DNA of 64,000 bases from an uncultured Candidatus Rokubacteria bacterium (GTDB taxonomy: Bacteria > Methylomirabilota > Methylomirabilia > Rokubacteriales > CSP1-6), in NCBI GenBank assembly GCA_963762145.1, contig CAVXJS010000011.1:288001-352000 (forward strand). The letters are read 5' to 3'. The position numbers and the translations under genes were made by a program. A model generated the notes under the pieces. The model saw nothing but the letters and a program-made list of their open reading frames with translations, was not told the DNA's origin and did no database searches. Shown here piece by piece: positions 15,050-32,775 of this stretch; positions within the stretch are counted from its first letter, which is position 1; the number at the start of each line of letters is the position of its first letter.

Positions 15050-15079
15050 GGGCGTGCCGTGCGGGCGGGAGTATAGCAC

Positions 15080-15940
15080 TCACGGCGGCGCGGGCGGGCC
15101 GGACGGCTGCAGCATGAGCGTCGGGACGCCGCAGGTCCCGTCGCGCACTGTGAACACGTGCGTGCCCGGCTTGCGGCCGGGGCGCGTCTCCGAGACATCG
15201 AGGCCGGCGTCCCGCAGGCGGGTGGCCGCCGCCGACGGCTCGTCCGTCCGCCAGGACAGGCCCCAGAGGCGGTCCGGACCGGCGGACACCCCGGCCCGCA
15301 GATCGTGGGCCAGCTCCACGATGAGGTCCCCGCAGCGGAAGAACATGAGCCGCGCGCCCCACGCCGGATTCGACCGGTCGAGGCGCATGTCGAGCCCCAG
15401 GCGCGCGCCGTAGAGCGCGGTGGCCCGCTCGGGATCAGGGGTGCGGATCACGACGTGATCCAGTCCGGTCACCCCGCCGGGCGCGGCGGGAGGCGCGGCG
15501 GGCAGCGGCGCGTCGCGCTGGATCAGGAAGACGCGCACGCCGTGGGTTGCCGCCGTCGCGGCCCGGGTGCGGCGCCAGCGGCGTCGCGCGCCGGTCGCCC
15601 GGTCCAGGCTCTCCGCGGCGGCGACCGGCTCGGGATCGAGGCCGAGCCGGGTGAGCCGGCGGTGGGCGCGCTCGATGTCGTCCACCGCGAAGGCCAGGCT
15701 CGCGAGCCCTTCGCCTTGCGCGTCGAGGACGGCACGCAGGCGCTCCGCGCCCGGGCCACCGCCCGCGGGCGCGATCAGCTCCGCGGCGACGTTGGCGAGC
15801 TGGAAGACCGCGGTCTCAGCGAAGCCGCCGGCCGCCTCCGCCCGCCAGCACGGGGGTCGGCCGAGGAGGCGTTGATACGCCGCGATCGCCGCGTCGAGAT
15901 CGCGCACCGCGATGACCACGTGATCGAGCGCGGTGATCAT
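15080..15940 (-). CDS. VOC/glyoxalase family protein (two VOC domains)
   Basis: LDHVVIAVRD and LDHVVIRTPD repeats. Confidence 0.85.
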   Translation of the reverse strand: MITALDHVVIAVRDLDAAIAAYQRLLGRPPCWRAEAAGGFAETAVFQLANVAAELIAPAGGGPGAERLRAVLDAQGEGLASLAFAVDDIERAHRRLTRLGLDPEPVAAAESLDRATGARRRWRRTRAATAATHGVRVFLIQRDAPLPAAPPAAPGGVTGLDHVVIRTPDPERATALYGARLGLDMRLDRSNPAWGARLMFFRCGDLIVELAHDLRAGVSAGPDRLWGLSWRTDEPSAAATRLRDAGLDVSETRPGRKPGTHVFTVRDGTCGVPTLMLQPSGPPAPP

Positions 15941-16001
15941 GCGACGGCCTTGTCGCGTGGGGCGGTGGCGGGCACGGTGCGGAAAGTGTAGCATCGTGAC
16001 G

Positions 16002-16824
16002 ATGAGCGAGCTGATTTCTGCCGCTGATCCGCATCCGCGTCGCCGGGTGAAGACGCTCGACACCGAGATGGCCTACGTGGACGTGGGCGCGGGCGATCCG
16101 GTGGTGTTCCTCCACGGCAACCCGACCTCGTCCTATCTCTGGCGCAACGTCATCCCGCACGTCGCGGCGCTCGGCCGCTGCCTGGCTCCCGATCTGGTCG
16201 GCATGGGCGACTCGGGCCGCGCGCCCGCCGGCTCCTACCGGTTCGTGGACCACGCGCGCTATCTCGACGCCTGGTTCGACGCGATCGTCCCGGCGCGCGC
16301 CGTGACGCTGGTCGTGCACGACTGGGGCTCGGCGCTCGGGTTCGACTGGGCGCGGCGCCATCCCGAGCGGGTGCGCGGCGTGGTGTACATGGAGGCGCTC
16401 GTCCGGCCGGTGACGTGGGACGAGTGGCCGGAGCCGGCGCGGAAGATCTTCCAGGCCCTGCGGTCGCCGGGCGGCGAGGAGATGGTGCTCCAGAAGAACG
16501 TGTTCGTGGAGCGGATCCTGCCCTTGAGCGTGCTGCGCGGTCTGACCGACGCCGAGATGACCGTGTATCGCCGCCCCTACCTCGAGCCGGGCGAGTCACG
16601 CCGCCCGACGCTCACCTGGCCGCGCCAGATCCCGATCGCCGGCGAGCCCGCCGACGTCGTGGCCATCGCCGACGCCTATGCCGGGTGGCTGGCCGCGGCG
16701 GCCGAGTTGCCGAAGCTCTTCGTCAACGCCGATCCGGGCGTCATCCTGACCGGCCCCCAGCGCGAGTTCTGCCGACGGTGGCCGAACCAGCAGGAGATCA
16801 CGGTGCGGGGGAGCCACTTCATCC
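16002..16824 (+). pseudogene. dhaA: Haloalkane dehalogenase, 5' part (interrupted by island)
   Basis: FLHGNPTSSYLWRN, APDLVGMG, VHDWGSALG, YMEA, RRPTLTWPRQIP, GSHFI; similarity stops abruptly after HFI. Confidence 0.9.
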
Positions 16825-16853
16825 GCAAGTACTCCGGGCGAGGGAGAAGCGAC

Positions 16854-17024
16854 ATGAAGCCCTGGATGATCTGGCCGATGGCAGCGGTCTATGCGCTCTT
16901 CTACGATGCGCGACCGGAGACTTGGGGAGCGTACCTCGGTGCCGTCGTCGTCGCGTTCCTCGCTCTCCTGCCGCCGTTCGCGCTTGGCTATGCCGCAGCG
17001 AAGAATCAGAAGCCGCCCATTTAG
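16854..17024 (+). CDS. Small membrane protein (56 aa), in frame with the dhaA 5' part
   Basis: GGGAGA RBS then ATG; hydrophobic AYLGAVVVAFLALLPPFALGY segment. Confidence 0.45.
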   Translation: MKPWMIWPMAAVYALFYDARPETWGAYLGAVVVAFLALLPPFALGYAAAKNQKPPI

Positions 17025-17124
17025 ACGTTCCACCAGCCGCGCTCGACCAGCCGGTGTCAAGCCCACTATCGGGAACGCCAATAAATCCTTGAAGTCATAT
17101 CGTCACCCTCGATAAATTACGGCT

Positions 17125-17430
17125 ATGTTGCGACTCCGAGACGTCAAGGGCGGACTAAGGCGGAGGATTTGGCCGCCGAGTGGTTTACCGCGCGAAGCCC
17201 GCAACCACGGAACGCTGGTCGGCGTGCGTCGCATGGGGGACCGCTTGGGGTTGACGATCCTCTATCACGAACGCGACTACACAGGGTGGCTTGACGAGTG
17301 GGACTCGCCCCCGACCATTGACCAAGTGGAAGCCCTGCTCATGTCAATGCTCGGCAAGACGATTCACGCACTGGGTGAGGCGTGGATAGACGAGGACGCT
17401 CCAACCGTCGTCGATGAGCTAGGGTTCTGA
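17125..17430 (+). CDS. Hypothetical protein
   Basis: 101-aa ORF with TAAATT 6 nt upstream of ATG; acidic C-terminus. Confidence 0.55.
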   Translation: MLRLRDVKGGLRRRIWPPSGLPREARNHGTLVGVRRMGDRLGLTILYHERDYTGWLDEWDSPPTIDQVEALLMSMLGKTIHALGEAWIDEDAPTVVDELGF

Positions 17431-17504
17431 ACGCATGGACCCTGCCTCGGCGCGCATTACCGACACCCGCCAACGACGTAGTGAGACACGCGCTCGGCGA
17501 CGCG

Positions 17505-17732
17505 CTAGATTGAGCGCGGATGTTGCGGTCGGGCGGCCTGCGCTCGGCGGCGGTAGTCGTCGCGGCTCTCGATCTTGACAACGTGGGTGCCCTTCTCGCG
17601 CCCATGTTCCGCCGCGAGTAGTTGCGCTTGTACGTCAGTCTCGGTGTAGCCGCGCCACCGGCCACAACTGCATGTCACCCACCAGCGGTCCGTCGTGCTG
17701 CTCGACTTGGTCAGCCGCCAGCGGTGTGCCAT
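17505..17732 (-). CDS. Small hypothetical protein with CxC...H motif (phage-like)
   Basis: MAHRWRL...WWVTCSCGRW...AAEH; TACCTT 7 nt upstream of ATG 17732. Confidence 0.5.
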   Translation of the reverse strand: MAHRWRLTKSSSTTDRWWVTCSCGRWRGYTETDVQAQLLAAEHGREKGTHVVKIESRDDYRRRAQAARPQHPRSI

Positions 17733-17819
17733 GCGGGCCAAGGTAGTCCCCGTCGAGTAAAAAACTAGTAAAGATCGACGAGGCCCCGCCCGGGGCTACG
17801 GCTTCTTCGGGCCCTAGTT

Positions 17820-18987
17820 TGTCCTGAGCCGGATTAGTGTTGACACTTGTGACCAGAAACAGTGAGGGCCATCTGGCCTATCGTTCCCAGAGTGAACCAC
17901 CCCCTGCCAGGGGAACCACTTTGGGAGGATCGACCGATGACCCTCGAGGAGAAAGTACACGGACTGCGGCTGCATGTCATCCAGCGGGCGGAGGAGTTGG
18001 GCAATGTCAGTCGGGCCGGCCGGGAGGCGGGGATCTCCCGCGCCCTGTTCTACCGCTGGCGTCAGCGGTTGGAGCGCTACGGCCAGGACGGGGTGCATCC
18101 GCGGCGGCATCGGGCCCGCCCCGGCCGACCGGTGCAGCTGGCCCCGGAGACGGAGCGGCTGCTGCTGAGCGTGGCGGTCAGCGCGGCGACGTGGGGCGCG
18201 AGTCGGATCGCCGCTTACCTGCGCCATCGCTGGCAGCTGCGCGTGGCACCCAGCACGGTGCAGCGTGCCCTGCGGCGGGCCGGGCTGGCGACCCGCCGGC
18301 AGCGGCTGACCGTGCTCGAGCACCGCGCCCTGCAGACGGCGGGGTTGCTGACCGAGCGGACGCGCAGCACCCTGTGGCAGGCGCAGCACGGCCAGCCGCG
18401 TCACGTCGCCGCCCGCGAGCCCGGCGAGCTGGTGTGCGTGGACACCTTCTACATTGGGCAGCTCAAAGGCGTGGGCAAGGTCTGGCAGATCACGGCCTGC
18501 GACGCCGCGTGCTCCTACGGCGTCGCGTGGTTGCTGCCAGCCCACAACGCCGAGGCGGCCGCTCACTTCGTGCGTCGCATCTTGGTGCCCCTGTATCGCC
18601 GGGCGGGCTGGCGGCTGCGCCGCCTGCTCACCGACGGCGGCCCCGAGTTCAAGGGGGCGTTCGATGACGCCTGCCGGACGCTCGGCCTCCGCCACACCCG
18701 AACGAAGCCGCGGCACGCGTGGACGAACGGGTTCGTCGAGCGGCTGCAAGGCACGATCTTGCAGGAGCATTGGCGCGTGGCCTTCCGTCGGCGCTACTTC
18801 ACGAGTCGAACGGCGCTCCAACGAAGCCTCGATGGGTTCATGCAGTCCTACAATCACGAGCGGCCCCATCAAGGCTACCGGGTCCGTGGCCGCACCCCCG
18901 CCGCGCTCTTCTGGGGCGCCGCTCGGGCCTGACCGCATGTCGCACTCTGGGGTGGCCAAGGTGTCTACACCATTCCGGGTCTGGACA
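17820..18987 (+). mobile_element. IS481-family insertion sequence, complete
   Basis: TGT...ACA ends; IRL TGTCCTGAGCCGGATTAGTGTTGACAC vs IRR(rc) TGTCCAGACCCGGAATGGTGTAGACAC; 8-bp target duplication CCCTAGTT at 17812-17819 and 18988-18995. Confidence 0.93.
17937..18932 (+). CDS. IS481-family DDE transposase
   Basis: N-terminal HTH (GISRALFYRW), PGELVCVD, LTDGGPEF, TNGFVER, YNHERPHQG. Confidence 0.93.
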   Translation: MTLEEKVHGLRLHVIQRAEELGNVSRAGREAGISRALFYRWRQRLERYGQDGVHPRRHRARPGRPVQLAPETERLLLSVAVSAATWGASRIAAYLRHRWQLRVAPSTVQRALRRAGLATRRQRLTVLEHRALQTAGLLTERTRSTLWQAQHGQPRHVAAREPGELVCVDTFYIGQLKGVGKVWQITACDAACSYGVAWLLPAHNAEAAAHFVRRILVPLYRRAGWRLRRLLTDGGPEFKGAFDDACRTLGLRHTRTKPRHAWTNGFVERLQGTILQEHWRVAFRRRYFTSRTALQRSLDGFMQSYNHERPHQGYRVRGRTPAALFWGAARA

Positions 18988-19420
18988 CCCTAGTTCAGCG
19001 TGAGTTGTTGACCGCTGGCCCACGATCCGGCCCGCTCCGCACGAGGTAGGTCGAGAGCGTGTCGAGCTTGGGCCGTCTTGTTGCGGTACCGGGTAGAAAT
19101 GCCGCATCATCACTCGGTCAAAGGTTCTGAGCCGCCAGCCAATCCTCTGAAGCCTCCAGCCAAGAGTTCGAAATATCTAGCCTAATTCCGTGGCATGTCG
19201 GTTGCTCTTCACATGTCGGCGCTTCGATCTCGGCTTGTAAGGAGGAGATCATGCCCTGCATTCGGTGCGGCAGGATTACGGTGAAATTGTGTACTTGCTC
19301 AATCGAGCAGGCGAGGGAAGCGCTCTCGAGCTGGTCGAAGGTGGAGCTCCAACAGGCAATCAACACGTTAAGGAAGATCTTGAACTCCAAGCAGACTGAG
19401 GCACCAAGCAGGCAGTAAAA

Positions 19421-19460
19421 GCCCGAGGGGGGACCGCTCGTTGGTCCCTCCCCCTCGGGC
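19421..19460 (-). terminator. GC-rich hairpin followed by TTTT on the minus strand, possible intrinsic terminator
   Basis: GCCCGAGGGG..GGACC / GGTCC..CCCCTCGGGC stem, preceded by AAAA on the plus strand. Confidence 0.4.
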
Positions 19461-19575
19461 GATTTGCCGGGCGTGCCGGCTGTCGGTGAATCTTACCCCT
19501 GATCCCGACCACCACTGGGGTCTACTGGCTGACGCACCCCGATCAACAAACTGCCGCTCCGGGCGAGGTAGAAAA

Positions 19576-19893
19576 TTGGACTACACTCAGCGCGGGGTGC
19601 TCGATGCACAGATGCGGGTCACCGAGCGACTAGGCCGCATTCTGGCCGAGCACGGGATGGTGCTCGACCCCGGCTCGCCACTCTGGTTCGACGGGCGCCT
19701 CGAGCTCCCGACGCCTGGCGAGCCGTGGACGATGAAGCTTTCGTGTCGTGGGGCTACGGCGTCGGTCGAGTTCACCCCGGCCGAACTCGAAGCGTTCCTC
19801 GAGGTGCGCCCGCCCGAGATTGTTTCGGAGAAGCTCCGCCGAGCTGTTGACGCGATAAAGCCGCCCAAGCCCCAAGAGCGCGGGCTGGCCTAA
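19576..19893 (+). CDS. Hypothetical protein
   Basis: GAGG upstream of TTG; coding-like 3' part of ORF 19441..19893; start uncertain. Confidence 0.5.
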   Translation: MDYTQRGVLDAQMRVTERLGRILAEHGMVLDPGSPLWFDGRLELPTPGEPWTMKLSCRGATASVEFTPAELEAFLEVRPPEIVSEKLRRAVDAIKPPKPQERGLA

Positions 19894-19983
19894 GGGCGTG
19901 CACTACCACGTCGCGAGTTCGTCTTCTCGGCCCGAGCAGCGACCAACTGCGGGACTGTCCCGTATGGTACAGTCCCGTACCCC

Positions 19984-20223
19984 ATGGACGAGGCCTCTCG
20001 GCGGATCACCGACAAGCTGTGGCGGGGCATCCTTCCGACCGACGATTCTGTCAAGACGTGGGGCGGCTACGGCACCGGTCTGACATGCGCCGGATGCGAC
20101 GCGCCCATCACGTCGAGCGAGCCGGAACACGAGGAGGAGATGTCGGACGGGCGCACACTCCGCTTCCACGTCGCCTGCGACGGGCTCTGGAGGGTCTTGA
20201 AGCAGGCGCTGCCCGAGTCGTAG
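19984..20223 (+). CDS. Small putative zinc-binding protein (CxxC...HxxC)
   Basis: GTGLTCAGCDAPI...RFHVACDGLW; extended -10 TGgTACAGT upstream. Confidence 0.7.
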   Translation: MDEASRRITDKLWRGILPTDDSVKTWGGYGTGLTCAGCDAPITSSEPEHEEEMSDGRTLRFHVACDGLWRVLKQALPES

Positions 20224-20241
20224 CCAACAGGGAGTAGATGG

Positions 20242-20649
20242 CTAGGCCTGAATCGTGTCCTTGATCGCGACGAGCAACCGGGTCGCGATGTCGCGCTTGG
20301 TGATGAATGAGTCGGCGCCGTTCAGGAACGCCGAGCGGCGCGTGTCATCATCGGTCAGGTTAGTCAAGACCAGAATCCTCGTCTCGGGCCATTCCCTCTT
20401 GATCCGCCGCGTCGCTTCGAGCCCTCCAACGCCGGGCATCATCACGTCCATCACGACGAGGTCTGGCTGTGCCTGGCGGACGAGAATAATCGCTGACTCG
20501 CCATCCTGCGCTTCACCGACCAGAAGCACTGTCGGGTCTTGGCTGAGGATGAAGCCGACCAGCGTACGGACTTCGACGTCGTCATCGGCGACGACGACTC
20601 GAACGGCTCTTGCCGCTTCTCGAAGAGCTGATGATCTCGCGGAACTCAC
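20242..20649 (-). CDS. Stand-alone response regulator receiver (NarL-like REC)
   Basis: VVVADDD, DLVVMDVMMP, GLEATRRIK, GADSFITK; start uncertain (20649 or 20688). Confidence 0.85.
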   Translation of the reverse strand: MSSARSSALREAARAVRVVVADDDVEVRTLVGFILSQDPTVLLVGEAQDGESAIILVRQAQPDLVVMDVMMPGVGGLEATRRIKREWPETRILVLTNLTDDDTRRSAFLNGADSFITKRDIATRLLVAIKDTIQA

Positions 20650-20729
20650 ACGCCGTGCGAGTGCAACACAGGATGACTTGTCTGTCAACGGGCCGACGGC
20701 AACCGAGACTGGTCGAGGTAGCTCATCGG

Positions 20730-20900
20730 AGCGAGAAACATGCTCGCTTCCTTCCCCTCACTTGTGGCGAGATCGGCCTGTAGAGCTCCGTGACCTTGGC
20801 ATGCTGCATGGCGTTGACGAAGCCCGTGATACCCGCGCCGATGGCAATGCCGAGAGTGCGTGCAACCGCGAGCGCCAAAGCTGACCGGTTCCTTCAAACC
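20730..20900 (-). pseudogene. Decayed 5' fragment of a secreted (possibly cupin-like) protein
   Basis: Frameshifted ALALAV..LGIAIGAGITGFVNA..AKVTELY / ADLATSEGKEASMFLA after a GGAGG RBS. Confidence 0.3.
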
Positions 20901-21253
20901 TCCGTGTGCAGTCGGTCCTTTTTGGTCAGAGGCACGCGGACGGTGACCAATCTGCAGATGGACGCAGTCGGTCGTCTCGTGATCCTTCGCTCTGACCGCC
21001 ATAGGGCAGGCATGGAGCAGATTTAGGTGGGCGCCGGTGTAGACGCAAACACTACGTCTTCGGCTCCACGCGCGCTCGTCCACGCGCTGGGCGCAGCATC
21101 TGCACGAGTCCAGAACCCAGGGGAGCGAGTCCGAGCCGGCTCTGACAAATCGAGGCAGTGGGGCCCGCCCGTCGTCAGGACCCCGATGGGGCCGCTCATT
21201 CCAATACTTACGTGAGTCGGCCTTCGTAGCCCTGCTATGGGGCACAGGTCTCG

Positions 21254-21269
21254 TGGCACCTTGGTTGCA
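21254..21269 (+). promoter_or_regulatory. Sigma54 (-24/-12) promoter
   Basis: TGGCAC-CTTGG-TTGCA with the canonical 10-nt GG to GC spacing, 46 nt upstream of ATG 21316. Confidence 0.65.
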
Positions 21270-21315
21270 CTTTGGCACGCGGAGACGGCACGCAGTAACG
21301 ACAAGGGGGCCGCGA

Positions 21316-21711
21316 ATGGATGCCGTGGACGCCCGGCGCATCGTAATCGTGGATGACGATGACTTGGTGCGCGAGGGCATGGAGATGACGCTCGAAGTGG
21401 TCGGGTACCGGATCCGGGCAACCGGCAGCGCTCGGGAGGCCCTCCGGTGGCTTGAGGACGAGCCCTGCGAGCTGCTGATCATCGACGTCAACATGCCGGA
21501 GATGGACGGGCCCGAGTTGCATCGCCGAGTCCGCGCGCGGTGGGCCACCAGCGCGCCACGCGTGGTGTTCGTGTCAGGCCACGACGAGATCCGCGGGGAC
21601 GAGCAGGATCCGGATGTGCTCGCCGCCCCGCGACTGGTCAAGCCATTTTCCCTCGGCGCGCTGCTCACCGCCGTCAACCGAGCACTCGGGCCGAGCCATG
21701 TCCGGGTTTGA
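21316..21711 (+). CDS. Stand-alone response regulator receiver
   Basis: IVIVDDD, LLIIDVNMPEMDG, FVSG, KPF. Confidence 0.85.
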   Translation: MDAVDARRIVIVDDDDLVREGMEMTLEVVGYRIRATGSAREALRWLEDEPCELLIIDVNMPEMDGPELHRRVRARWATSAPRVVFVSGHDEIRGDEQDPDVLAAPRLVKPFSLGALLTAVNRALGPSHVRV

Positions 21712-22039
21712 TCGATACGCGCAAACAGACAAGCTGCCAGCGGTCCCGCCGCGCACACGCCGGCTTAACCCGCGGGTCCCCGTGTCATGGACCGTCTGGG
21801 CCCGTACCGGCCAGCAGCGGATGCGCTTTCACGCCGTTGACGTCAGTCCACGCGGCGCCAAGCTGCGTCCGAGGGGAGTGTTCCCGGTTGGCGCGGCGAT
21901 TGAGCTCGAATTTATCACGCCGGACGGGCGACGTCTGCCCGTGTCCGCCGTCGTCTGGCGTGCGGACTCGGATGGGCTGGCCGTCCTATTCCTCGGGTCG
22001 GTGCCCGCGGGTTTCGATGCGGGTGGGCATCGGGTCTGA
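21698..22039 (+). CDS. PilZ domain (c-di-GMP binding) protein
   Basis: RRLNPR (RxxxR) and DVSPRG (DxSxxG) motifs. Confidence 0.85.
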   Translation: MSGFDRYAQTDKLPAVPPRTRRLNPRVPVSWTVWARTGQQRMRFHAVDVSPRGAKLRPRGVFPVGAAIELEFITPDGRRLPVSAVVWRADSDGLAVLFLGSVPAGFDAGGHRV

Positions 22040-22077
22040 ACCCAGGACCACGGCGTACGTAGTCTCCGAGGCGAGCC

Positions 22078-22466
22078 ATGGCTGAGACCATTCTGGTCGT
22101 CGATGACGATGATGATGTGCGCGCGGTCGCCCGGCAGGCTTTGGTGACAGCGGGATACACCGTCGTGGAAACTGGCGATCCGCAGCAGGCGATCCGCATG
22201 GCCAAGGCGCAGCGGATAGATTTGCTGCTGACAGATGTGGTTATGCCGATATGAAGGGGACCGAGCTGGCGGATCGGATCCAAGCCGTGAGCAGGTCGAC
22301 GAAGGCGCTGCTGATGTCGGGCTATGTGACCTCGGAGATCGCCTCGTCGCGCCGGCCGTTCCTGGCCAAGCCTTTCAGCATCGACGACCTGGTGCGTCGC
22401 GTGCGCGAGACGCTCGACCGGCCCTCATCCTTCGCCCGGCCGACGAAGCCAAACCCATCTTCGTAG
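22078..22466 (+). CDS. Response regulator receiver, frameshift near 22250
   Basis: [11 protein letters not shown]...[10 protein letters not shown] then MKGTELA...LMSG...KPF in the next frame. Confidence 0.75.
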
Positions 22467-22571
22467 GGGTGCCGCCGGTCGCTAACCTCTTCAGTTTGCG
22501 CCCGCTGTTGTTCCGCGGCCTGGGCGCTTGGTCTGGGGGCAGCCTCTCGAGGGTGGCTCATCCCCTTCGGG

Positions 22572-22605
22572 CGCTACCGGGCGCCTCGCCACGCGCCCGG
22601 TAGCG
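22572..22605. terminator. Perfect 13-bp hairpin between convergent genes
   Basis: CGCTACCGGGCGC-8 nt-GCGCCCGGTAGCG; no U-tract. Confidence 0.4.
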
Positions 22606-22735
22606 TCAGCCTACCGCCGCTCCCCGGTCCGGTCTAGCGGCTCAGCCGGCGTGATCGGCTGCGCGATGCTGGCCCCGCTCCCGCCACGCGGACTGAAGGT
22701 GGGGGCTTCCAGAATCTCCCAGCCGCTAGCCCCAC

Positions 22736-23281
22736 CTACTTCTTTTTGAACGGCTCGAAGCCGAACTTCTGGCCGCCAACACTCGCCTCGAACATGAGGC
22801 CCTCCTCACTGGTAGTGAAGACCGCCACGCCGTTCTGGTATTTGGCGTTCGCCGACGCGCCCTTGGTCACGGCCACCGCGCTTGCCTGAGCCGCCAGCGC
22901 TAACGTCCCGTTCTTGAAGTCCGTGAACGCCGGCGCCGTCTCAAAGAAGATGATTTCCGAGTAAGTCTGGGCACCAAGCTGGGCACCGACCGTCACCTGG
23001 GTGAGCGACGTCTTGCCGATAGCCTTGCCTTTCTCGAAGACAACGCCCGAGCCGGTCGCGCCGCCGATACCGGCCGCTCCTTTTCCAACCGTTGGGAAGA
23101 CCGCGTACCCGACCGACTTTTCGAAGAAGCGGGAGAGGCCTGGGTCCGCCTTCTTGAAGACAGCGACGGTGTCCCGCGCCTCCTTTACATCCTTGGTTAC
23201 ATCCATGGTCTGGGCAGCGGCGGTCTGGATGAGGAGGCCGAAAGCCAGCAGGAGTCCTACGCCGAACGTTTTCGCTACCAT
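22736..23281 (-). CDS. Secreted SYLF/Ysc84 lipid-binding domain protein
   Basis: Signal peptide; GYAVFPTVGKG..GIGG..G.G, VGAQLGAQ, GLMFEASVGGQKF. Confidence 0.85.
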   Translation of the reverse strand: MVAKTFGVGLLLAFGLLIQTAAAQTMDVTKDVKEARDTVAVFKKADPGLSRFFEKSVGYAVFPTVGKGAAGIGGATGSGVVFEKGKAIGKTSLTQVTVGAQLGAQTYSEIIFFETAPAFTDFKNGTLALAAQASAVAVTKGASANAKYQNGVAVFTTSEEGLMFEASVGGQKFGFEPFKKK

Positions 23282-23326
23282 ATGATTCTCCCTTCCGGCC
23301 GGATGCTTGAACTGCTTGGCCGCGAT

Positions 23327-23519
23327 TCAAAATCGATCATACTCCTTAGATCGATCGTAGTCCTTAGGAGGGACGGGGCGGGGCGGCCTGATCGGATGCG
23401 CGATACCGCCGCCGCAGTCGCACACTATCCAGAGATGGTCCCTGTCCACGCCGCCGTCCAGCTCGCCGCAGCGACGGTGCTCCTGCATGAAGGCGTCGAG
23501 GGGCGAGTACTTCGGGCAT
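23327..23519 (-). pseudogene. Small HxxC...CxC peptide gene, frameshifted near its start
   Basis: MPEVLA / LDAFMQEHRRCGELDGGVDRDHLWIVCDCGGGIAH; starts 4 nt after the SBP stop. Confidence 0.45.
23332..23367. repeat. Tandem 18-bp direct repeat upstream of the SYLF gene
   Basis: ATCGATCATACTCCTTAG ATCGATCGTAGTCCTTAG (16/18). Confidence 0.75.
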
Positions 23520-23523
23520 CGTG

Positions 23524-24504
23524 CTACTCGATCACCTGATCCGCCCGCTGCAGGAGCGACGGCGGGATCGTGAGGCCGATGGCCTTCGCGCTCTTCAGAT
23601 TGATCCAGAATTCGAACTTGGCGGGCTGCTCGACAGGAAGATCGGCGGGCTTGGCCCCACGCAGGATCTTGTCGACATAGAACGTGACGCGCCGTATCGC
23701 GTCGTATTCATTCGCACCGTACGCCATGAGACCGCCCGCGGTCTTCACCCACCAGGCTCCCGATGTGTACATGGCCGGCATCCGCTTTGCCTGGGTCAGG
23801 GCGATAATCCGCCCCCCCCAAATGTTAATGAGGTAGGCATTCGAGACAATCAGGGCCCCACAGCGTTCTCGCACAGCGATCTCGAAGAGAGACTCGATCT
23901 CGTGCGGGCCCACCTCTAAAGATCGCAGTTCTAATCCGAGTGGTTGGGACGCCTGCTGCGTCGCCTGCCAAAGGTCGACGCTCTCCGGACTGCCCCGACT
24001 CCAAAATACCCCTACGCGGACGAGGCCAGGTACGGCGTCCTTGAGCAGTTCGAGCCGCTTACCGGCGAGTTCCGGGTTGCGCAGGGTCAGCCCCGTGACG
24101 TTTCCGCCTGGCCGACCGAGGCTGGATACGACTCCGGCTACGACGGGGTCACCCTCGGCCAACATGACGATGGGAATGGTCTTAGTGACATCCCTGGCCG
24201 CTCGAATCGCTGGCAGCCCCGCCGCCACGATCACGTCCACTCCAGACCGGGCGAGTGCGGTCGCGACCACCGTCAGCTCTTGGTCGGCGCGCGCCACCCC
24301 TCGCTCAATGATCGCGTTCCGCCCTTCGACATAGCCAGCCGAATACAGCGCCCCAACCAGTAGAGAACCGAACTCCGCGATTGGAGGGAATGGGCCCTCC
24401 AGAAGGCCAATCCGATAGCCCTTCCCCGCCGGTTGCGCCTCGGCGGCGAGCGGCGCGGCGAGGAGGCCGCCGGCCAAGGTGCCGATGAACGTCCGCCGGT
24501 CCAT
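23524..24504 (-). CDS. ABC-type substrate-binding protein (ABC_sub_bind family), Tat-like signal
   Basis: MDRRTFIG, GYVEGRN, SLGRPGGNVTG, KRLELLK, KPADLPVEQP, RADQVIE. Confidence 0.9.
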   Translation of the reverse strand: MDRRTFIGTLAGGLLAAPLAAEAQPAGKGYRIGLLEGPFPPIAEFGSLLVGALYSAGYVEGRNAIIERGVARADQELTVVATALARSGVDVIVAAGLPAIRAARDVTKTIPIVMLAEGDPVVAGVVSSLGRPGGNVTGLTLRNPELAGKRLELLKDAVPGLVRVGVFWSRGSPESVDLWQATQQASQPLGLELRSLEVGPHEIESLFEIAVRERCGALIVSNAYLINIWGGRIIALTQAKRMPAMYTSGAWWVKTAGGLMAYGANEYDAIRRVTFYVDKILRGAKPADLPVEQPAKFEFWINLKSAKAIGLTIPPSLLQRADQVIE

Positions 24505-25490
24505 CACTCGATCACCTGGTCCGCCCGCTGCAGGAGCGACGGCGGGATCGTGAGGCCGAGGGCCTTCGCGGTCTTCAGGTTAATCACGAGCTCGAACTTC
24601 GTGGGTCCCTCCATCGGGAGATCGCCTGGTGCGGACCCTTTCAGGATCCTGTCTACGTAATCTGCCGCGCGCCGATACATATCGGCACCGCCGGGTCCAT
24701 AGGCCAGCAGCCCTCCTGCCCGGGCGAACACGGGGGACCCGATCGTCGGCAATCGATGCTTAACGGCGAGGCTGGCGATCTGGCCGCCAAGCGGGTTGAG
24801 CAGTGATGTGTTCGGCACAACGACGGCGTGCGCTCCGTGTCGTCCCAAGTCGTCGAACGCTTGAGTGAGATCGTTCGGCCCGCGCACGAGGACTCGATCG
24901 ATCGAAAGCCCTCGCGGTAAGGCGGCAGCGTCCTCCTGTCGCCGCGACGCTTCAGCAACCTCCGGCTGCTCGATCCCAGGCACGTCGAGCCATCCGAGAC
25001 GAGAAGCAGTCGGCGCCACCTCCTTCACGAGGTCAAACCACTTCACGGTCGCCTCGAACTCCTGGAGTACGAGTCCGGTGACGTTGCCGCCCGGTCGAGC
25101 AAGGCTCGCGACTACGCCGTTCGCCACCGGATCCCCGACCACGGCAATCACGATGGGGATCTCGGCCGTCGCCTGCTTTGCCGCACGCGATCCGGGTGAC
25201 CCATGGGTCACGATGATGTCGACCTTCGCGCCAACGAGCTCCGTGGCCAACGCTGGCAAGCGGTCAAGCTTCCGCTCCGCCCAGCGGTACTCGATGACGA
25301 GATTTCTGCCTTCCTCGTATCCGCGATCCCGAAGACCCTGTTGAAGTGCGGCGGTTTGGCGGGCCAGGTCTGACGCAGAAGTCTGGCCGAGAAACCCCAG
25401 TCTGTAGACCCGGGCCGCGGTCTGTGCCTCGACGGTGAAGGGCACGGCGAGGAGGCCGCCCGCAAGTCCGAGGAATGCCCGGCGGTCCAT
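24504..25490 (-). CDS. ABC-type substrate-binding protein (ABC_sub_bind family), Tat-like signal
   Basis: MDRRAFLG, GYEEGRNLVIEYRWA, SLARPGGNVTG, RADQVIE; stop overlaps the next start (TGATG). Confidence 0.9.
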   Translation of the reverse strand: MDRRAFLGLAGGLLAVPFTVEAQTAARVYRLGFLGQTSASDLARQTAALQQGLRDRGYEEGRNLVIEYRWAERKLDRLPALATELVGAKVDIIVTHGSPGSRAAKQATAEIPIVIAVVGDPVANGVVASLARPGGNVTGLVLQEFEATVKWFDLVKEVAPTASRLGWLDVPGIEQPEVAEASRRQEDAAALPRGLSIDRVLVRGPNDLTQAFDDLGRHGAHAVVVPNTSLLNPLGGQIASLAVKHRLPTIGSPVFARAGGLLAYGPGGADMYRRAADYVDRILKGSAPGDLPMEGPTKFELVINLKTAKALGLTIPPSLLQRADQVIE

Positions 25491-25710
25491 CACTCGATCA
25501 CCTGGTCCGCCCGCTGCAGGAGCGACGGCGGGATCGTCAGGCCGAGGGCCTTCGCGGTCTTGAGGTTGATCACAAGCTCTACCTTCGTCGGCTGCTCGAT
25601 GGGGAGATCGGCAGGCTTGACGCCTTTGGGGATCGTGTCGACCTGGCCCGCCGCGCGGCCAAAGAGATCGGAGATCTTCGGGCGTAGCTCATTAGTCCGC
25701 CGGCCGCGCC
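25490..25710 (-). pseudogene. 3' fragment of an ABC_sub_bind gene
   Basis: AAGGLMSY / ...[42 protein letters not shown]; 5' part missing. Confidence 0.8.
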
Positions 25711-25880
25711 GCGCCGGGTCCCCGTCGCCGGAAGTGGGACCATTGCGGCTATCGCCTTGAGGTCGCTTGCCCAGGCGGCGTCACATTCGAGCGCTGGGTG
25801 ACGCGTGAGGATGCGGCGCTAGAGTTGGCGCTGCGACACATGCGGGCGGATAAGTGAGCTACTGACGTCGGCGCCGCGCT

Positions 25881-26148
25881 TCACCTGATGCCTGCTCCGA
25901 TCTTCTTATCGTAGGTGCACGTCGTGACGGAGGAGCCGAGCGTCCCCTTGTTGCGCACCGACATTTCGTAACGCCCCTCGCCGAGTGACCTGACGTTCTC
26001 GGTCTCTATGGGCTGATCGCCCTTCTTGCGCGCTGCCTCGATGCAGGCGGCACGGGCGGCATCAACGCTGCCGGCACCTAACTGCCCACCGCAACCGCTA
26101 GCAAGAACAAGCGCCACCCCCACCAGTGCCGTTGCTCGCATCCGCATG
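25881..26148 (-). CDS. Small lipoprotein
   Basis: AGGAGG RBS; MRMRATALVGVALVLASGC lipobox; two further Cys. Confidence 0.7.
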
Positions 26149-26459
26149 TGGGCCTCCTGTAGTCTTCGGTTCACCCCGGGTCGAGGCCGGGCGACGCCGC
26201 AGACCGCACCGCATCTAAGCGGAGCATAGGGCGTGCCTTCGGTTGCCGTTGAAGCCCGTCGCGACCGGCCTGGCCGTCGTCAGCGGGCCGGCAGACGCCT
26301 CAGCTGAACACACGGCTGACCTGGCCACCTATCACACTATCTAGCATACCTTGGCCGTCTGGTCCTGGGTCCCTTAGCCCCAATCCCAAAATAACTCTCA
26401 GGCCGCGAGCGCATGTTGAATGCGGGCATAGAGCACCTCGGTCGCCGGGTTCTGGGCGA

Positions 26460-26590
26460 TGTTGCGAGTTGTGGTTGCTGAGCCCCCGGCGGCGAGCGGC
26501 GCGGCGAGGAGGGCGAGCGTTACACCGGAGACGAACGCTCGCCGATCCATCACTCGATGACCTGGTCCGCCCGTAGAAACAGCGACGACC
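26460..26590 (-). pseudogene. Isolated ABC_sub_bind stop/start junction remnant
   Basis: SLFLRADQVIE* overlapping MDRRAFVSGVTLALLAAPLAAGAQQ, with nothing else of either gene. Confidence 0.75.
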
Positions 26591-26603
26591 GCATAGTCCG
26601 GGC

Positions 26604-26984
26604 CTAGCGCCGGCGCCTTCTCTTCGGCTTAGCCTTTGACGCCCGGTTGGTTGCTGGTTTCCGTGCTGCGGGAGGAGCCGCTGCGGATCTCCTCACATCA
26701 ACCACGACATCATGCCACCAGTGCTCAGCTGGTCCGGTCTCTAACCCGTCGAGCCGCCCGCGCGTCGCTGCGAATTGCCGGTCGTGGTGCCAAGCCTCCC
26801 AGTCGGCGCGCGTCTTCCACGTGCCGACGATCACTCGCCTGTCTGGCTTGTCGGATTGCCGGAGGAGCTGTCCTCCCACCCAACCCGGCCGCTTCTTCGC
26901 GGCCGACAGACGAGTGCGCATCGCAGCATCCCACCCAGGTCCAGCCCCTTCTTTCAGGTGTACGTGCGTGACGATAGTCATCAT
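26604..26984 (-). CDS. Antibiotic biosynthesis monooxygenase (ABM) family protein
   Basis: PGWVGGQLL...IVGTWKTRADWEAWHHD dimeric alpha/beta barrel pattern; GAGGAGG RBS. Confidence 0.8.
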   Translation of the reverse strand: MMTIVTHVHLKEGAGPGWDAAMRTRLSAAKKRPGWVGGQLLRQSDKPDRRVIVGTWKTRADWEAWHHDRQFAATRGRLDGLETGPAEHWWHDVVVDVRRSAAAPPAARKPATNRASKAKPKRRRRR

Positions 26985-27030
26985 CGAGTTGGTCCTCCTC
27001 GGCCCTAAATCGAGCGTGATTCTCTTGGTC

Positions 27031-27112
27031 TCACTGGATTACCTCGTCCGCCCGCTGCAGCAGCGACGGCGGAATCGTCAGGTCGAGAGCCTTGGCGGTC
27101 TTGAGGTTGACC
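27031..27112 (-). pseudogene. 3' fragment of an ABC_sub_bind gene
   Basis: [26 protein letters not shown] starting about 10 nt after the cyclase stop. Confidence 0.8.
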
Positions 27113-27122
27113 GGGTGGCATG

Positions 27123-30100
27123 TCATCCGAGTGCGGCGGTCTCCGCCGCCACCTGCTCCAGCCAGTACTTCATATCCATCTCGCGGTACATCGTCGTCGC
27201 GGTGGCGAGGTGCTCACGGGCCTGCTCGCGCTTGCCCGCGCGCCCGTGGAGCTTGCCGAAGCCGAGGTGGCAGTGGGCGACGAGAGGCCGCATGCCAAGG
27301 TCGCCGGCGAGGACGACTGCCTGCCGAAGATAGTCCTCACCCGCTTCCACGTCGAATGGATCCCGGCACGCCGCAAGCTCGCCGAGGACATGGAGGGCCC
27401 TGGCTTCCTGGGCGCGACTCTTCTGCGCGCGCGCAAGGTCGAGCTCTTGCTCGGCGAGACGGCTTGCCTCGTCCAGGTAACCACCGAGCAGATAGCTTTC
27501 AGCCAGAGACCCGCTATTGGAACCGGGTTCGACCCGTGGATCCGCGAGCACGCGGGCGGCATCGGACGAACGCCCGGCGAGTCCGTACGCGGCCGCAAGC
27601 GGTGTCGCACAAACCGACCACATGGTGAAGCCTAGGCTGGTACTCACCTCGCATCCTCGCTCCAACAATGGGATGGCCCGGTCAACGTCCCCTTTGCGCA
27701 CGAGAGCAAATCCGAGCCCTACGAGGGCATTGATCAGGCTGTAGGGGTGGTCGGCAGTCTCGGCGATCTCGACGGCCTCGGTGCCGAAGGCGATCGCGTC
27801 GGTGAACCGGCCGACCTCGGCCAGCGACATGGCAACCCACCGGCGGTTGACGACCGAGACTATGGCCGGGCCGACCTGGCGCCAGCGCAGGGTCTCGTCA
27901 AGCGATTCCGCCTCGATGTTGCCCACGAAGTGGGCGATCGCCTCATCATAGTCACCGAGCGCATTCCGGATCTCGCCGAGGACAAAACCCGCGATTCGCT
28001 GGCGGGTCGGATTCCCGGCGCGCGTGGCAAGCTCAAGGGCGTGCTGTCCCGCCTGAAGGGCTTCTTGGTATTGTCCAGTGGCCCAAGAGCAGTGCGCCAT
28101 GGCGCTGACGACGGCGGATTGCCGGTCCTCGTCGCCGAGGGCCTTCGCAATCGGCTCCGCCTGCCGCAGATGGAATGGCACACTCGCGAAGTCTCCGAGC
28201 GCTACGAGTGAGGATCGGATGTCCAGGCGAAGATCGATGGCCTGAGTCTGGCGTTCGGCCGTGTCCGGCAGCTTTGCCAGTGCCGCCAGGGCGTGTTCGA
28301 ACCACGTCACGGCCTCGCGGTGCGCCCGGCGGGCTGCCGCCTTCAGGCCCGCCTCGCTTGCATACCGCACCGCCTTTCCCCACGCCTCACCCCGGAGCGC
28401 ATGGTGGGCCACTCGCTCCACATGCTCGGCCAGACGATCTCCATAGAGTGCCTCGATGACCTCCACCAGCCGCGCGTGAATCCCCCGCCGGCGCTCGTGT
28501 AGGAGGCCTCCGTAGGCCACCTCGTGGGTCAGCGCGTGCTTGAACGTGTACTCGAGATCCGGAAACAGACACACCTCGTACAGAAACTCTGCCGTCTGCA
28601 GATGAATGAGTCCTCGGCGTACCTCCTCCTCCGCGCGGTCGTCGGTGATCGCCGCTAAGAGAGGGAAGGGCACATCTTTCCCGATCACCGCCGCGGACTG
28701 AAGCAGGTGCTTTTCCTCCGGTGAGAGGCGGTCGATCCGTGCGGCGAGGATCGCCTGGACGGTGGGCGGCACCTGGATGTCGGTGAGCGCCGTAGTCAGC
28801 CGGTAGGTGCCGCGCCCGCCGACGAGCGCGTTGGTCTCGGCCAGGGTCCGAACACTCTCCTCCAGGAAAAACGGATTGCCCTCGGTCCGCGCAATCAGGA
28901 TTGGCTTGAGGGACTCGATCGTAATGTCCACGCCGAGGAGGCTGTGGAGCAACTCCAGCGCGCTCTCCGGAGGAAGCGGATCCAGCCGAACTTGAGTGTA
29001 GGAAGCTTTGCTGCCCCACCGGTGCGCGTACTCTGGCCGGTAGTTGACGAGGAGGAACAGGCGTGCCGGCGGCAGGCTCTCGACGAGGCTGTCGAGCACC
29101 GCCTGGGTCTCGGAGTCGATCCAGTGGAGGTCCTCGAAGACAACCAGGAGCGGCTGCACCTGAGCTTCGCGCAGGAGTAGGCGCTTGACCGCGTCGAGCG
29201 TCCGCTGCCGGCGCTGCGGCGGGTCGAGGGCCTGCCACTGAAGGTCCTCGCCAGCCACCTCCAGCAGGGCCAGGAGTGCTGGGAGCACCACCTCGAGGGC
29301 ACGGTCCAGCGCGAGGACCTTTCCCGTCACCTTCTCGCGAATCTCGCGGGGTGTGTCGCGATCACCGATCCGAAAGTATCCCTTGAGGAGGTCGATCACG
29401 GGCAAGTAGCTCGTGGCTTTGCCGTACGACACCGAGCCGGCCTCGACGACCACCCACCCCTCGACGCGATGCGAGTGGGTCAGCTCGAAGGTCAGGCGCG
29501 ACTTGCCCACGCCGGGTTCCCCCACGACGGCCACGATCTGGCCGCGTCCCGACCCAGCCTGCCCAAGCGCGCGCCGAAGGTGTTCGATCTCGACGTCGCG
29601 GCCCACGAACCGCGACAGCCCCCGCGCGGCGGCCGCCTGGAGCCGTGACCGCGCGGCGCTGATTCCGGCGAGCTCATACACCTCGACGGCGGTGGTGAGG
29701 CCCTTCACGGCCACGAGCCCCAGGGATGTCACTTGCACGAAGCCCTCGGCGAGCGCGAGGGTGTCCGGGGTTAGGAGCGTCGAGCCGGGATCAGCAAGCT
29801 GCTCCATCCGCGCGGCAAGGTGGGTGGTCTGGCCCACCGCAGTGTAGTCCATATGCAGGTCGGAGCCGATGGCGCGAACGACCACCTCGCCCGAATTCAG
29901 GCCCACGCGAATGCGAATTGTGACGCCATACTCCCGCCGCACCCCCTCGGCGTACCGCTTCACCGACTCCTGCATCCGCAGCGCCGCGTAGCAGGCCCGC
30001 ACGGCGTGATCTTCGTGGGCCAGCGGCGCGCCGAACAGCGCCATAATCCCGTCACCCATAACCTGGTTGACGGTCCCCTCGTAGCGATGGACGGCTTCCA

Positions 30101-30458
30101 TCATCCGCTCGAGCACTGGGTCGAGGAGCTTGCGCGCTTCCTCGGGATCACGGTCGGCGAGCAACTCCATCGAGCCCTTAAGGTCGGCGAAGAGGACCGT
30201 GACCTGCTTGCGCTCCCCCTCGAGGGCGGCCTTGGAGGTGAGGATCTTCTCGGCGATGTGTTTCGGCGTATACGAGTCCGGGGCGGCGAACTTGGCTGTC
30301 GGGCTTGTCCGGAGCGGTGCTGCGCACTGGCCGCAGAACTTATTCTCGGACGGGTTGGCCGCGCCACAGGACGGACAGGTTGCGGCCAGTGGGGCGGCGC
30401 ACTCCCCACAGAACTTCATGGTTGGTGGGTTATCGAGTTGGCACCGCGGGCACTGCAT
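27123..30458 (-). CDS. Double zinc ribbon + class III adenylate/guanylate cyclase + AAA/STAND-type ATPase + TPR protein
   Basis: Four CxxC motifs; ERKQVTVLFADLKGS, MGDGIMALFGAP, HLAARME; GEPGVGKS Walker A, LVVFEDLHW Walker B; C-terminal TPR-like helices. Confidence 0.92.
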   Translation of the reverse strand: MQCPRCQLDNPPTMKFCGECAAPLAATCPSCGAANPSENKFCGQCAAPLRTSPTAKFAAPDSYTPKHIAEKILTSKAALEGERKQVTVLFADLKGSMELLADRDPEEARKLLDPVLERMMEAVHRYEGTVNQVMGDGIMALFGAPLAHEDHAVRACYAALRMQESVKRYAEGVRREYGVTIRIRVGLNSGEVVVRAIGSDLHMDYTAVGQTTHLAARMEQLADPGSTLLTPDTLALAEGFVQVTSLGLVAVKGLTTAVEVYELAGISAARSRLQAAAARGLSRFVGRDVEIEHLRRALGQAGSGRGQIVAVVGEPGVGKSRLTFELTHSHRVEGWVVVEAGSVSYGKATSYLPVIDLLKGYFRIGDRDTPREIREKVTGKVLALDRALEVVLPALLALLEVAGEDLQWQALDPPQRRQRTLDAVKRLLLREAQVQPLLVVFEDLHWIDSETQAVLDSLVESLPPARLFLLVNYRPEYAHRWGSKASYTQVRLDPLPPESALELLHSLLGVDITIESLKPILIARTEGNPFFLEESVRTLAETNALVGGRGTYRLTTALTDIQVPPTVQAILAARIDRLSPEEKHLLQSAAVIGKDVPFPLLAAITDDRAEEEVRRGLIHLQTAEFLYEVCLFPDLEYTFKHALTHEVAYGGLLHERRRGIHARLVEVIEALYGDRLAEHVERVAHHALRGEAWGKAVRYASEAGLKAAARRAHREAVTWFEHALAALAKLPDTAERQTQAIDLRLDIRSSLVALGDFASVPFHLRQAEPIAKALGDEDRQSAVVSAMAHCSWATGQYQEALQAGQHALELATRAGNPTRQRIAGFVLGEIRNALGDYDEAIAHFVGNIEAESLDETLRWRQVGPAIVSVVNRRWVAMSLAEVGRFTDAIAFGTEAVEIAETADHPYSLINALVGLGFALVRKGDVDRAIPLLERGCEVSTSLGFTMWSVCATPLAAAYGLAGRSSDAARVLADPRVEPGSNSGSLAESYLLGGYLDEASRLAEQELDLARAQKSRAQEARALHVLGELAACRDPFDVEAGEDYLRQAVVLAGDLGMRPLVAHCHLGFGKLHGRAGKREQAREHLATATTMYREMDMKYWLEQVAAETAALG

Positions 30459-30508
30459 ACCGAGGCCTCCCAACGAGCCTGGCCGGGCACGGTCGGACAG
30501 GTGGCACG

Positions 30509-30572
30509 AGGGTAGTCTGCCGAGTGGGAGGGGTCAAGGACCGAGAGTCTACCTCGACCGAGAGTTTACCTC
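30509..30572 (-). promoter_or_regulatory. Sigma70 promoter of the cyclase gene with adjacent tandem 17-bp repeat
   Basis: TTGACC-17-TACCCT (30537-30509); GACCGAGAGTCTACCTC GACCGAGAGTTTACCTC at 30539-30572. Confidence 0.55.
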
Positions 30573-30880
30573 GTGTGCGAGGGCGCAGCAGCGACGCCCG
30601 GAGCAGGCGCATTGCGGGGATCGTGTCCGTTCAGGGCTCGCTCGATCTTCAATCCCAGCGGCCCCCCACGGCCCGGCCGTCTCCGCGTCTGAGCGCGACG
30701 CTCAGCCCTTTTGTCCGCGGGGCGCGAATTTTCCCGTTCGATTGGGCTCGGCGGCTTTGGGAGGGCGAGGGGACCAGAGGGCAGGGTGGCCGGAGCCCGG
30801 GCAGTCCAAGAAGGTAGGATTCCTGGTGACCTCGATCGGTCGGCCAGGGAAAGGAATGCTGAAAGACCCTCGGGGGTTCT

Positions 30881-30930
30881 GGTTGCGTCTGGGTTGCGTG
30901 TGTTGCCACGATCTGCCGCGTTCTGCCACG
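30881..30930. repeat. Short phased direct repeats at the island right end (arm-site-like)
   Basis: GGTTGCGT x2 (11-bp period); TGCCACG/TGCCGCG/TGCCACG (10-bp period). Confidence 0.6.
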
Positions 30931-30970
30931 TCACTCACCGCAAGTTATCGGGATGCTTGAGGGCGTCGGG

Positions 30971-31043
30971 CTTCATCCAGGAGGACTCGCCGCACGAGAT
31001 CGGCGACGCGGTCGCGGCCTTCGTGGGACGCCTACCACGCTGA
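30971..31043 (+). pseudogene. dhaA: Haloalkane dehalogenase, 3' part
   Basis: FIQEDSPHEIGDAVAAFVGRLPR*, the typical HF(I/L)QED-P-EIG C-terminus of DhaA/LinB. Confidence 0.9.
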
Positions 31044-31160
31044 GCCCGTTGCCTGGCACCCATGTGCCCAGGCTTCATTGCCTTACCTTCTCGGATCGCC
31101 TATACTGCCGCCGCACCACCCCCTCTGAGGAGAAGCAGATGGGCCTTTCGTGGGGGGGAC

Positions 31161-31850: not shown

Positions 31851-31888
31851 CCCGACGGTCAGGGCCTGCTCGCGTGAGGGGTAGTGGC

Positions 31889-32767: not shown

Positions 32768-32775
32768 GGCGTCGG

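Follow-up and report, generated by a model that had tools for sequence, protein, structure and literature searches.

Integrase-less derivatives flanked by attachment (att) sites are known, as cis-mobilizable elements and as satellites mobilised in trans, and integrases of the lambda type also use secondary attachment sites. Circular DNA can be integrated by short homology as well, one crossover within a few bases of microhomology then leaving a copy of these bases at each junction. The skin, SPbeta, gin and nifD elements each have a dedicated recombinase, a developmental trigger and an excision that takes place in a terminally differentiating cell. Papers on such gene-intervening elements describe skin in sigK, SPbeta in spsM, gin in gerE and elements in nifD/fdxN (PMC4191935, PMC5595907, PMC5499854, PMC11249958), and name SprA as the recombinase of SPbeta (PMC5499854). 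Islands and prophages specific for dusA, trmE or yicC are presented, in three other papers, as inserted inside protein-coding genes by means of tyrosine integrases (PMC4482086, PMC8409611, PMC8978831). The present study concerns an island of 14,146 bp that splits a haloalkane dehalogenase gene (dhaA) in a soil bacterium, the genome of which (G000) is a bin estimated to be 88% complete with 5.4% contamination. The window, i.e. the whole stretch of DNA analysed, is 64,000 nt long and corresponds to positions 288001-352000 of contig C11; positions without a contig name are those of the window. As in the skin, SPbeta, gin and nifD systems, an open reading frame (ORF) is split by kilobases of DNA and is exactly restorable at a short repeat; unlike in those systems, no dedicated recombinase was found.

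The orthologous dehalogenase loci of 11 genomes of the same genus (11 loci) were compared with the window by blastn. For all 11 loci, homology extended up to position 16824 and resumed at position 30971, with the same eight query bases aligned twice. In five of them the first alignment drifted 11-23 bases further, to 16835-16847, by chance similarity. Because the alignments end at 16824 and restart at 30971, the site is single in every relative and the sequence 16825-30970 is absent. In the window, the 8-bp sequence CTTCATCC is present as a direct repeat, with a left copy at 16817-16824 and a right copy at 30971-30978, and the inserted island occupies 16825-30970. The 8-mer was exact at the dehalogenase site of eight of the relatives, and was replaced by CTTCGTCC or CTTCCTCC in the other three. 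The duplication was established from these alignments to relatives, and not from chance statistics. The island also differed in composition, with a G+C content of mostly 0.60-0.69 versus 0.70-0.76 in the flanks, and a G+C content at third codon positions (GC3) of about 0.75-0.81 versus 0.87-0.97. Comparison of the sequences confirmed that the dehalogenase gene is split by a real and precise insertion, which can be reversed in silico.

The 5' part of the dehalogenase gene (16002-16824, plus strand) holds codons 1-274 plus one base, and keeps the catalytic-His motif GSHFI. Its 274 residues (16002-16823) scored 412.4 bits against the NCBIfam equivalog NF002938 (cut-off 241), which places the 5' part alone among the haloalkane dehalogenases of this family (HLD-II, LinB/DmbA type). 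Haloalkane dehalogenases of the LinB/DmbA type in the PDB matched it with E-values of 1e-112 to 1e-106, and the structure alignment stopped at its final residue (...GSHFI). Both HDWGSALG and GSHFI are within the 5' part; we take HDWG to be the nucleophile elbow and the catalytic His to be that of HF[IVL]QED. The complete core and the C-terminal helix are not in one polypeptide, as the codons for the last 21 residues stand at a distance of 14.1 kb, in the 3' part of the gene (30979-31043, plus strand; QEDSPHEIGDAVAAFVGRLPR plus stop), which is collinear with the 11 orthologues. Past 16824 the reading frame instead continues for 66 unrelated codons up to 17024 (fusion ORF 16002-17024). When 16002-16824 was joined in silico to 30979-31043, a frame of 888 nt and 295 codons without internal stop was obtained, the C-terminus of which (...HF[IVL]QEDSP...) was collinear with 11/11 orthologues, and this joined reading has the full set of dehalogenase features. 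An earlier note on this DNA had reported the 8-mer at both junctions, the restoration of the gene by joining at the repeat and the absence of a replacement 3' end on the island. These observations were all borne out, and the 11 congener loci have the gene intact with one copy of the site.

A dehalogenase orthologue was detected in 17 of the 20 genus members (E ≤ 1e-143), and no second orthologue was found in G000. The 5' part is 92.6% identical in nucleotides to the orthologue of G013. The changes specific to the G000 lineage were 22-30 synonymous versus 4-7 non-synonymous, depending on the outgroup; in the 21 codons of the 3' piece they were 3-4 and 0-1, respectively. No stop or frameshift was present in either half. 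These data are consistent with an insertion that is young compared with the ~8% divergence from G013, or with continued selection on the gene, recency being the simpler reading. The dehalogenase function would presumably have been lost through the insertion. A second, separate indel lies beside the gene: the 852 nt directly 3' of the dehalogenase stop (31044-31895), with a 262-codon ORF that has no Pfam or NCBIfam match, are unique in G000, and at this position the four relatives whose intergenic sequence was read have a short G+C-rich hairpin spacer of about 30-100 nt.

A paralogue of the right part of the island (a cyclase gene and its upstream region), about 69-70% identical, is located on contig C15 of the same genome. 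It holds an exact copy (C15:249464-249484) of the 21-mer at 30956-30976 (plus strand), which consists of the last 15 bases of the island and six bases of the repeat (CTTCAT). Exact copies of GAGGGCGTCGGGCTTCAT were found only on C11 and C15 of G000; with up to one mismatch there were scattered single matches in 8 of 60 relatives, compared with 3 control matches, and these were treated as background. (The tallies over 60 relatives include an unpublished genome, G029, on which no claim depends.) After the 21-mer, C15 continues with TCGAAAGTACTCG..., which reads FIRKYSQEFKK and lies in the 3' part of an NtrC-type sigma-54 activator gene, the part that encodes the AAA lid and HTH_8. The left end of the island, right after the repeat, is GCAAGTACTCC (IRKYS), and agrees with the continuation on C15 at 9 of the first 12 bases (empirical P = 2.7e-4). 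Positions 16817-16835 (plus strand) can thus be read as a 19-nt stub of an NtrC-type sigma-54 activator gene, with the codons (H)FIRKYS, which would be the island-side half of an attP-like site. The stub is identical at 16/19 positions to both C15 copies and at 18/19 to the orthologous activator gene of G002; with up to one mismatch, the 19-mer CTTCATCCGCAAGTACTCC occurred elsewhere in only one of the 183 genomes of the order, in this G002 orthologue.

Near the other end of the island, a tandem GGTTGCG motif is present once in the window, 35-90 nt inside the right end. On a contig of G026, which belongs to another genus, the same layout was contiguous beside a cyclase paralogue, the motif being followed by 84-85 nt and then by CATCCGCAAGTAC. 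An identity segment that attP and attB would share (the 8-bp repeat) and a coherent joined attP (collinear with C15 and G026) were therefore both found. As the joined ends match contiguous sequence on C15 and in G026, a joined or circular form would have existed first, and circular DNA probably crossed over with the dehalogenase gene inside the shared 8-mer. On this comparison, the 8-bp repeat marks the core of a crossover and did not arise by target duplication.

For two of 20 congeners, G020 (contig C58) and G017 (contig C11), the orthologue of the C15 activator gene was broken directly past CACTTCGT(G/C)CGGAAGTACTC, ending ...AAGTACTC. The activator is thereby truncated after the codons HFVRKYS, ahead of its HTH_8 DNA-binding domain. 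In both genomes, 52 nt separate the break from the 3' end of an oppositely oriented gene. In G020, it encodes a full tyrosine integrase (Phage_integrase, 84 bits; SAM-like N-domain) with an HTH_17 gene beyond it, and the 3' part of the activator gene is at the start of another contig; the G017 contig ends 213 nt into the integrase gene. One such junction is present on C15 of G000. The first six bases past the stub are CGGGCG in both G020 and the window. Homologues of the G020 integrase, with 38-57% identity, were found in 11 further genomes (12/183 with a match), and a tRNA gene was directly downstream in 4 of 13 integrase loci, which indicates an ordinary integrase family. The HFxRKYS codons, in the AAA+ lid region of the sigma-54 activator gene, are thus a probable attachment site for tyrosine-integrase elements. 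The same activator orthologue is also broken elsewhere in G003 (C633), 44 nt past CTTCAT (after ...EFKKDVRE).

Recombinase genes were searched for in the window and in the rest of the genome. Phage_integrase (PF00589) matched contig C11 only at 755,640 and 876,769, and not between 288,001 and 352,000; Resolvase (PF00239) had no match anywhere in G000. A hidden Markov model (HMM) built from eight integrase homologues gave no match in 15000-33000, even at an E-value of 1, and Pfam and NCBIfam scans of the plausible island ORFs detected no recombinase, the transposase of an insertion sequence (IS) of the IS481 family alone being found. No integrase gene is therefore present inside the element. 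The GGTTGCG motif might be what is left of one: the same motif encodes the C-terminal tails (RNPxAT, ATQxQP) of integrase homologues, and the stretch at 30875-30934 (minus strand; ...NTRNPDATR...) is probably a remnant of the 3'-terminal 15-20 codons of a tyrosine integrase gene, next to which no integrase body was detectable by HMM. Two other interpretations of the tandem motif were discarded: transposase or integrase binding sites, as it is better read as integrase tail codons, and a sigma-54 promoter, the spacing of which was a misfit by eye.

Two further observations concern this end of the island and its possible relatives. A non-coding stretch of ~230 nt (30699-30926), which ends in the tandem GGTTGCG motif, recurs with 74-79% identity at C9:873023-873248, at C14:7475-7607 and on contigs of G011; two inverted copies of the motif at C9:873-874 kb were rejected as IS ends, since they are inside a 5.4-kb imperfect palindrome with poly-A runs. 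At C5:72929-75230 of G000, an integrase homologue with about 30% identity to the G020 integrase extends over several reading frames, and adjoins a stretch of 674 nt with 84% identity to cargo of the G020 element. A related element may have left this relic; alternatively, indel errors may account for the frame breaks.

We propose that the DNA arrived in circular or some equivalent joined form and was derived from a tyrosine-integrase integrative element. A single reciprocal crossover inside the shared CTTCATCC would have left one copy of the 8-mer at each junction. The normal target of the incoming element would have been the orthologous sigma-54 activator gene, of which the 19-nt stub (codons HFIRKYS) would be the trace, and the dehalogenase would have served as a secondary site, since the bases of its catalytic-His codons, H-F-I, are also those of the stub. 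Catalysis by the integrase would have been in trans or would have preceded the loss of its gene from the island. Part of the island would also have been exchanged with a low-GC region on contig C22, and the island, now integrase-less, would be incapable of self-excision. Taken as a whole, this proposal of a recent insertion of an integrase-element derivative, via a shared 8-mer and at a secondary site, is given an even chance of being right. It departs from the earlier note, according to which the element targets the dehalogenase: none of the 11 congeners has any insertion there, so that recurrence at the dhaA site was not seen, and the 8-mer occurs 513 times in the genome. The site-specific origin that the note suggested is plausible, because of the attP-like joined ends and of the related integrase elements at the activator site in 2/20 congeners; what speaks against it is the lack of a recombinase in the island and in the window.

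The serious rival retains the same circle and the same crossover geometry, and attributes the crossover to illegitimate recombination at short homology, the stub being a scar carried from an earlier location. Such a recombinase-free crossover at microhomology fits equally well, and several observations weigh against the involvement of an integrase. Besides the absence of a recombinase from the island and the window, no close homologue of the integrase of the congeners was found in the 88% of the genome recovered, the best tblastn match of the G020 protein being 38% identical over 205 residues (C9:83815). Of the 513 CTTCATCC sites in G000, 58 are no less similar to the flanks of the joined ends than the dhaA site is, so that dhaA has nothing but the 8-mer to set it apart. 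The similarity between the left arm in the window and the G020 arm past the stub is limited to six bases, and the integrase-tail relic is on the opposite side of the core from the G020 tail, so the layouts are not simply equivalent. The far junctions of the G020 and G017 elements are unassembled, and both insertions may be one inherited event. Finally, the C15 locus is rearranged, with an intact activator gene and a 600-bp direct repeat of 97.8% identity. The two copies of this repeat (C15:254676-255274 and 248870-249469) begin exactly at CTTCAT, flank an ABC_sub_bind gene and the cyclase paralogue, and could release circles by homologous recombination. The region C15:220509-254857, a stretch of ~34 kb downstream of the activator gene that holds this repeat, is missing there in G013, G011 and G001; several scenarios fit the history of this locus, and none is decisive.

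Integration by short homology alone, however, would not explain why the crossover point is inside the integrase attachment site of the congeners. The stub ends at the same base (...AAGTACTC) where the integrase element joins the activator gene in two congeners, and the next six bases agree. The 21-mer beside the core is perfectly kept between copies whose identity is about 69-70% elsewhere, suggesting constraint on this site, and the same joined layout recurs in another genus (G026). Illegitimate recombination was accordingly regarded as a possible, if rather doubtful, origin of the insertion.

A further reading goes beyond the proposal of an immobile, integrase-less island. If the HF(I/V)RKYS codons of the activator gene were the attachment site of a whole integrase-element family, the island might be a non-autonomous member of it, which moved and is still excisable in trans. 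Dehalogenase activity would then be reversibly switched in populations with a circulating helper element. The island resembles integrase-less derivatives flanked by att sites, and insertions at lambda secondary sites, in its intact junctions, its lack of recombination genes and an identity with the target that is limited to a core of ~7-8 bp. It is unlike satellites mobilised in trans in that no helper with a cognate integrase was found in G000. Mobilisation of the island in trans is a conjecture, and this reading as a whole is improbable.

A reading that follows the earlier note makes the island autonomous and site-specific, with the catalytic-His codons of the dehalogenase as its target, so that its regulated excision would switch organohalide catabolism in the manner of skin in sigK or the nifD element. 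The two gene halves and the two copies of the 8-mer are intact, the 295-codon frame would be regained on excision at the repeat, and the dehalogenase shows purifying selection in the G000 lineage; this last signal, however, is explained equally by a recent insertion. The dedicated recombinase of a regulated gene-intervening element is lacking in cis, 0/11 congeners have an insertion at the dhaA site, and the island has decayed, as its pseudogenes and nested IS show. Neither the circle junction nor the empty site was found as a contig in the G000 assembly. Without a recombinase of its own, the locus looks like an ordinary recent gene disruption and not like a proven on/off switch, and a switch is very unlikely.

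Equally hard to sustain is a large DDE transposon with an 8-bp target-site duplication. The direct repeat of a sequence that is single in the relatives, and the presence of a DDE transposase in the island, would agree with such an element. No terminal inverted repeats were detected, however: the local score for the island ends was 8, with a shuffle mean of 8.03, and 58% of 1000 shuffles scored at least as high. The sole transposase belongs to the nested IS481-family element (17813-18993, plus strand; transposase at 17862-18932; Pfam rve, rve_3 and HTH), which lies 1 kb inside the island. This IS of 1.18 kb has its own ends, TGTCC...GGACA, beside CTAG, and the uninterrupted site is seen on C22; CTAG is the preferred target of the IS481 family. 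Its transposase scored 218.5 bits against NF033577 (cut-off 224), and two further copies, with 99.7% identity, are at C10:162213-163398 and C22:128284-129464. In addition, six bases of the 8-bp repeat and the left-end bases that follow belong to homologous, contiguous C15 sequence, and the island ends were not found as the ends of other copies in the 60 relatives. A DDE transposon was rejected, as inverted ends, a transposase to serve it and a duplication of target sequence only were all missing.

The weakest explanation is a chimeric contig. In its favour, G000 is a metagenome-assembled bin with some contamination, and the contig end C9:871000-876393 is a 5.4-kb imperfect palindrome (81% between arms) containing long stretches of poly-A; it is probably an artefact of long-read assembly and calls for caution on local assembly quality. 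A chimera, however, would not re-enter the same gene in frame after 14.1 kb with an exact 8-bp duplication, and assemblers are not misled by repeats as short as 8 bp.

The island is a decayed mosaic of signalling genes, substrate-binding-protein genes, pseudogenes and the nested IS481 element. At its left end is an orphan hydrophobic ORF of 56 codons (16854-17024, plus strand), in frame with the truncated dehalogenase, which matched no Pfam family and had one weak match (E = 0.0035) among the 182 other genomes of the order. The segment 17040-20704 is 91-98% identical (IS excluded) to C22:113212-110564, located in a low-GC region, and is the only part of the island with a near copy elsewhere. 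Two stand-alone response-regulator receivers follow (20242-20688, minus strand, PF00072, E = 1e-23; 21253-21711, plus strand, PF00072, E = 3e-21), then a PilZ-domain protein (21614-22039, plus strand; PF07238, E = 5e-7) and a SYLF/Ysc84-type lipoprotein (22736-23281, minus strand; PF04366; NF049970 with E = 1e-13, under the cut-off).

The remaining genes are all on the minus strand. Two tandem ABC_sub_bind substrate-binding protein genes at 23524-25493 (23524-24507 and 24504-25493; PF04392, E = 2e-38 and 1e-42) are followed by a degenerate third copy without a long open frame (25490-26553; repeat families D1-D9 and ORF lists), an ABM-domain monooxygenase-like protein (26604-26984; PF03992, E = 3e-8) and an 80-nt 3' fragment of another substrate-binding gene (27031-27110; repeat family D3, 90%, with many genomic matches). 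Genes of the ABC_sub_bind family (PF04392), present in the window at 23483-27110, are hugely expanded genome-wide, with dozens of paralogous 3' ends spread over 15 contigs or more, frequently arranged in tandem together with fragments. The last gene (27123-30473) encodes, according to Pfam, a protein of 1116 amino acids with zinc-ribbon, adenylate/guanylate cyclase, AAA_16 ATPase and TPR domains. Its family has about a dozen paralogues per genome and is strongly expanded in G000. The best match of the island cyclase among the 60 relatives was 62% identical in amino acids, and the C15 paralogue is 70% identical in nucleotides. No donor of the island was identified, with no cyclase relative above 62% in these 60 genomes and the 56-codon ORF an orphan among 183.

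A tRNA or other known RNA was discarded as target or cargo, as there was no tRNA in the window and no Rfam match (E up to 1) in 16000-32000. Upstream of the dehalogenase gene, a methyltransferase-like gene (14054-15079, minus strand; stretch 14049-15099) was missing at the orthologous locus of G013, G020 and G016, and present in G014. Part of 15500-20500 was found in 20 sequencing runs (8 studies), and at least half of the sampled words in 8 of them (2 studies), figures that bear neither on the junctions nor on habitat.

The islands specific for dusA, trmE and yicC are like the present one in their insertion within an ORF, in the short direct repeats at the junctions and in an element attachment site that copies a stretch of the target gene. 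The counterpart of that copied stretch is here the sigma-54 activator stub, and the integrase is found beside the corresponding site in G020 and G017. Unlike those islands, which have their own integrase and recur at the same gene in many genomes, the one described here has no integrase and brings no replacement gene end, and no relative is hit at its site. A full-text literature search found no paper on a haloalkane dehalogenase gene interrupted by a genomic island, and none on an integrase attB inside a sigma-54 enhancer-binding protein gene; the attachment site in the activator gene may be undescribed.

The case looks like a decayed, integrase-less island at an apparent secondary site, and adds one more gene to those knocked out by a decayed genomic island, here in an uncultured soil bacterium. 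Comparison with a paralogue allowed a crossover core to be told apart from a target duplication; this difference is commonly taken for granted and rarely put to the test. The work also exposed a probable attachment site for tyrosine integrases within a sigma-54 activator gene. Were the island to be excised in trans, it would provide a natural example of a satellite-like island that toggles a catabolic gene.

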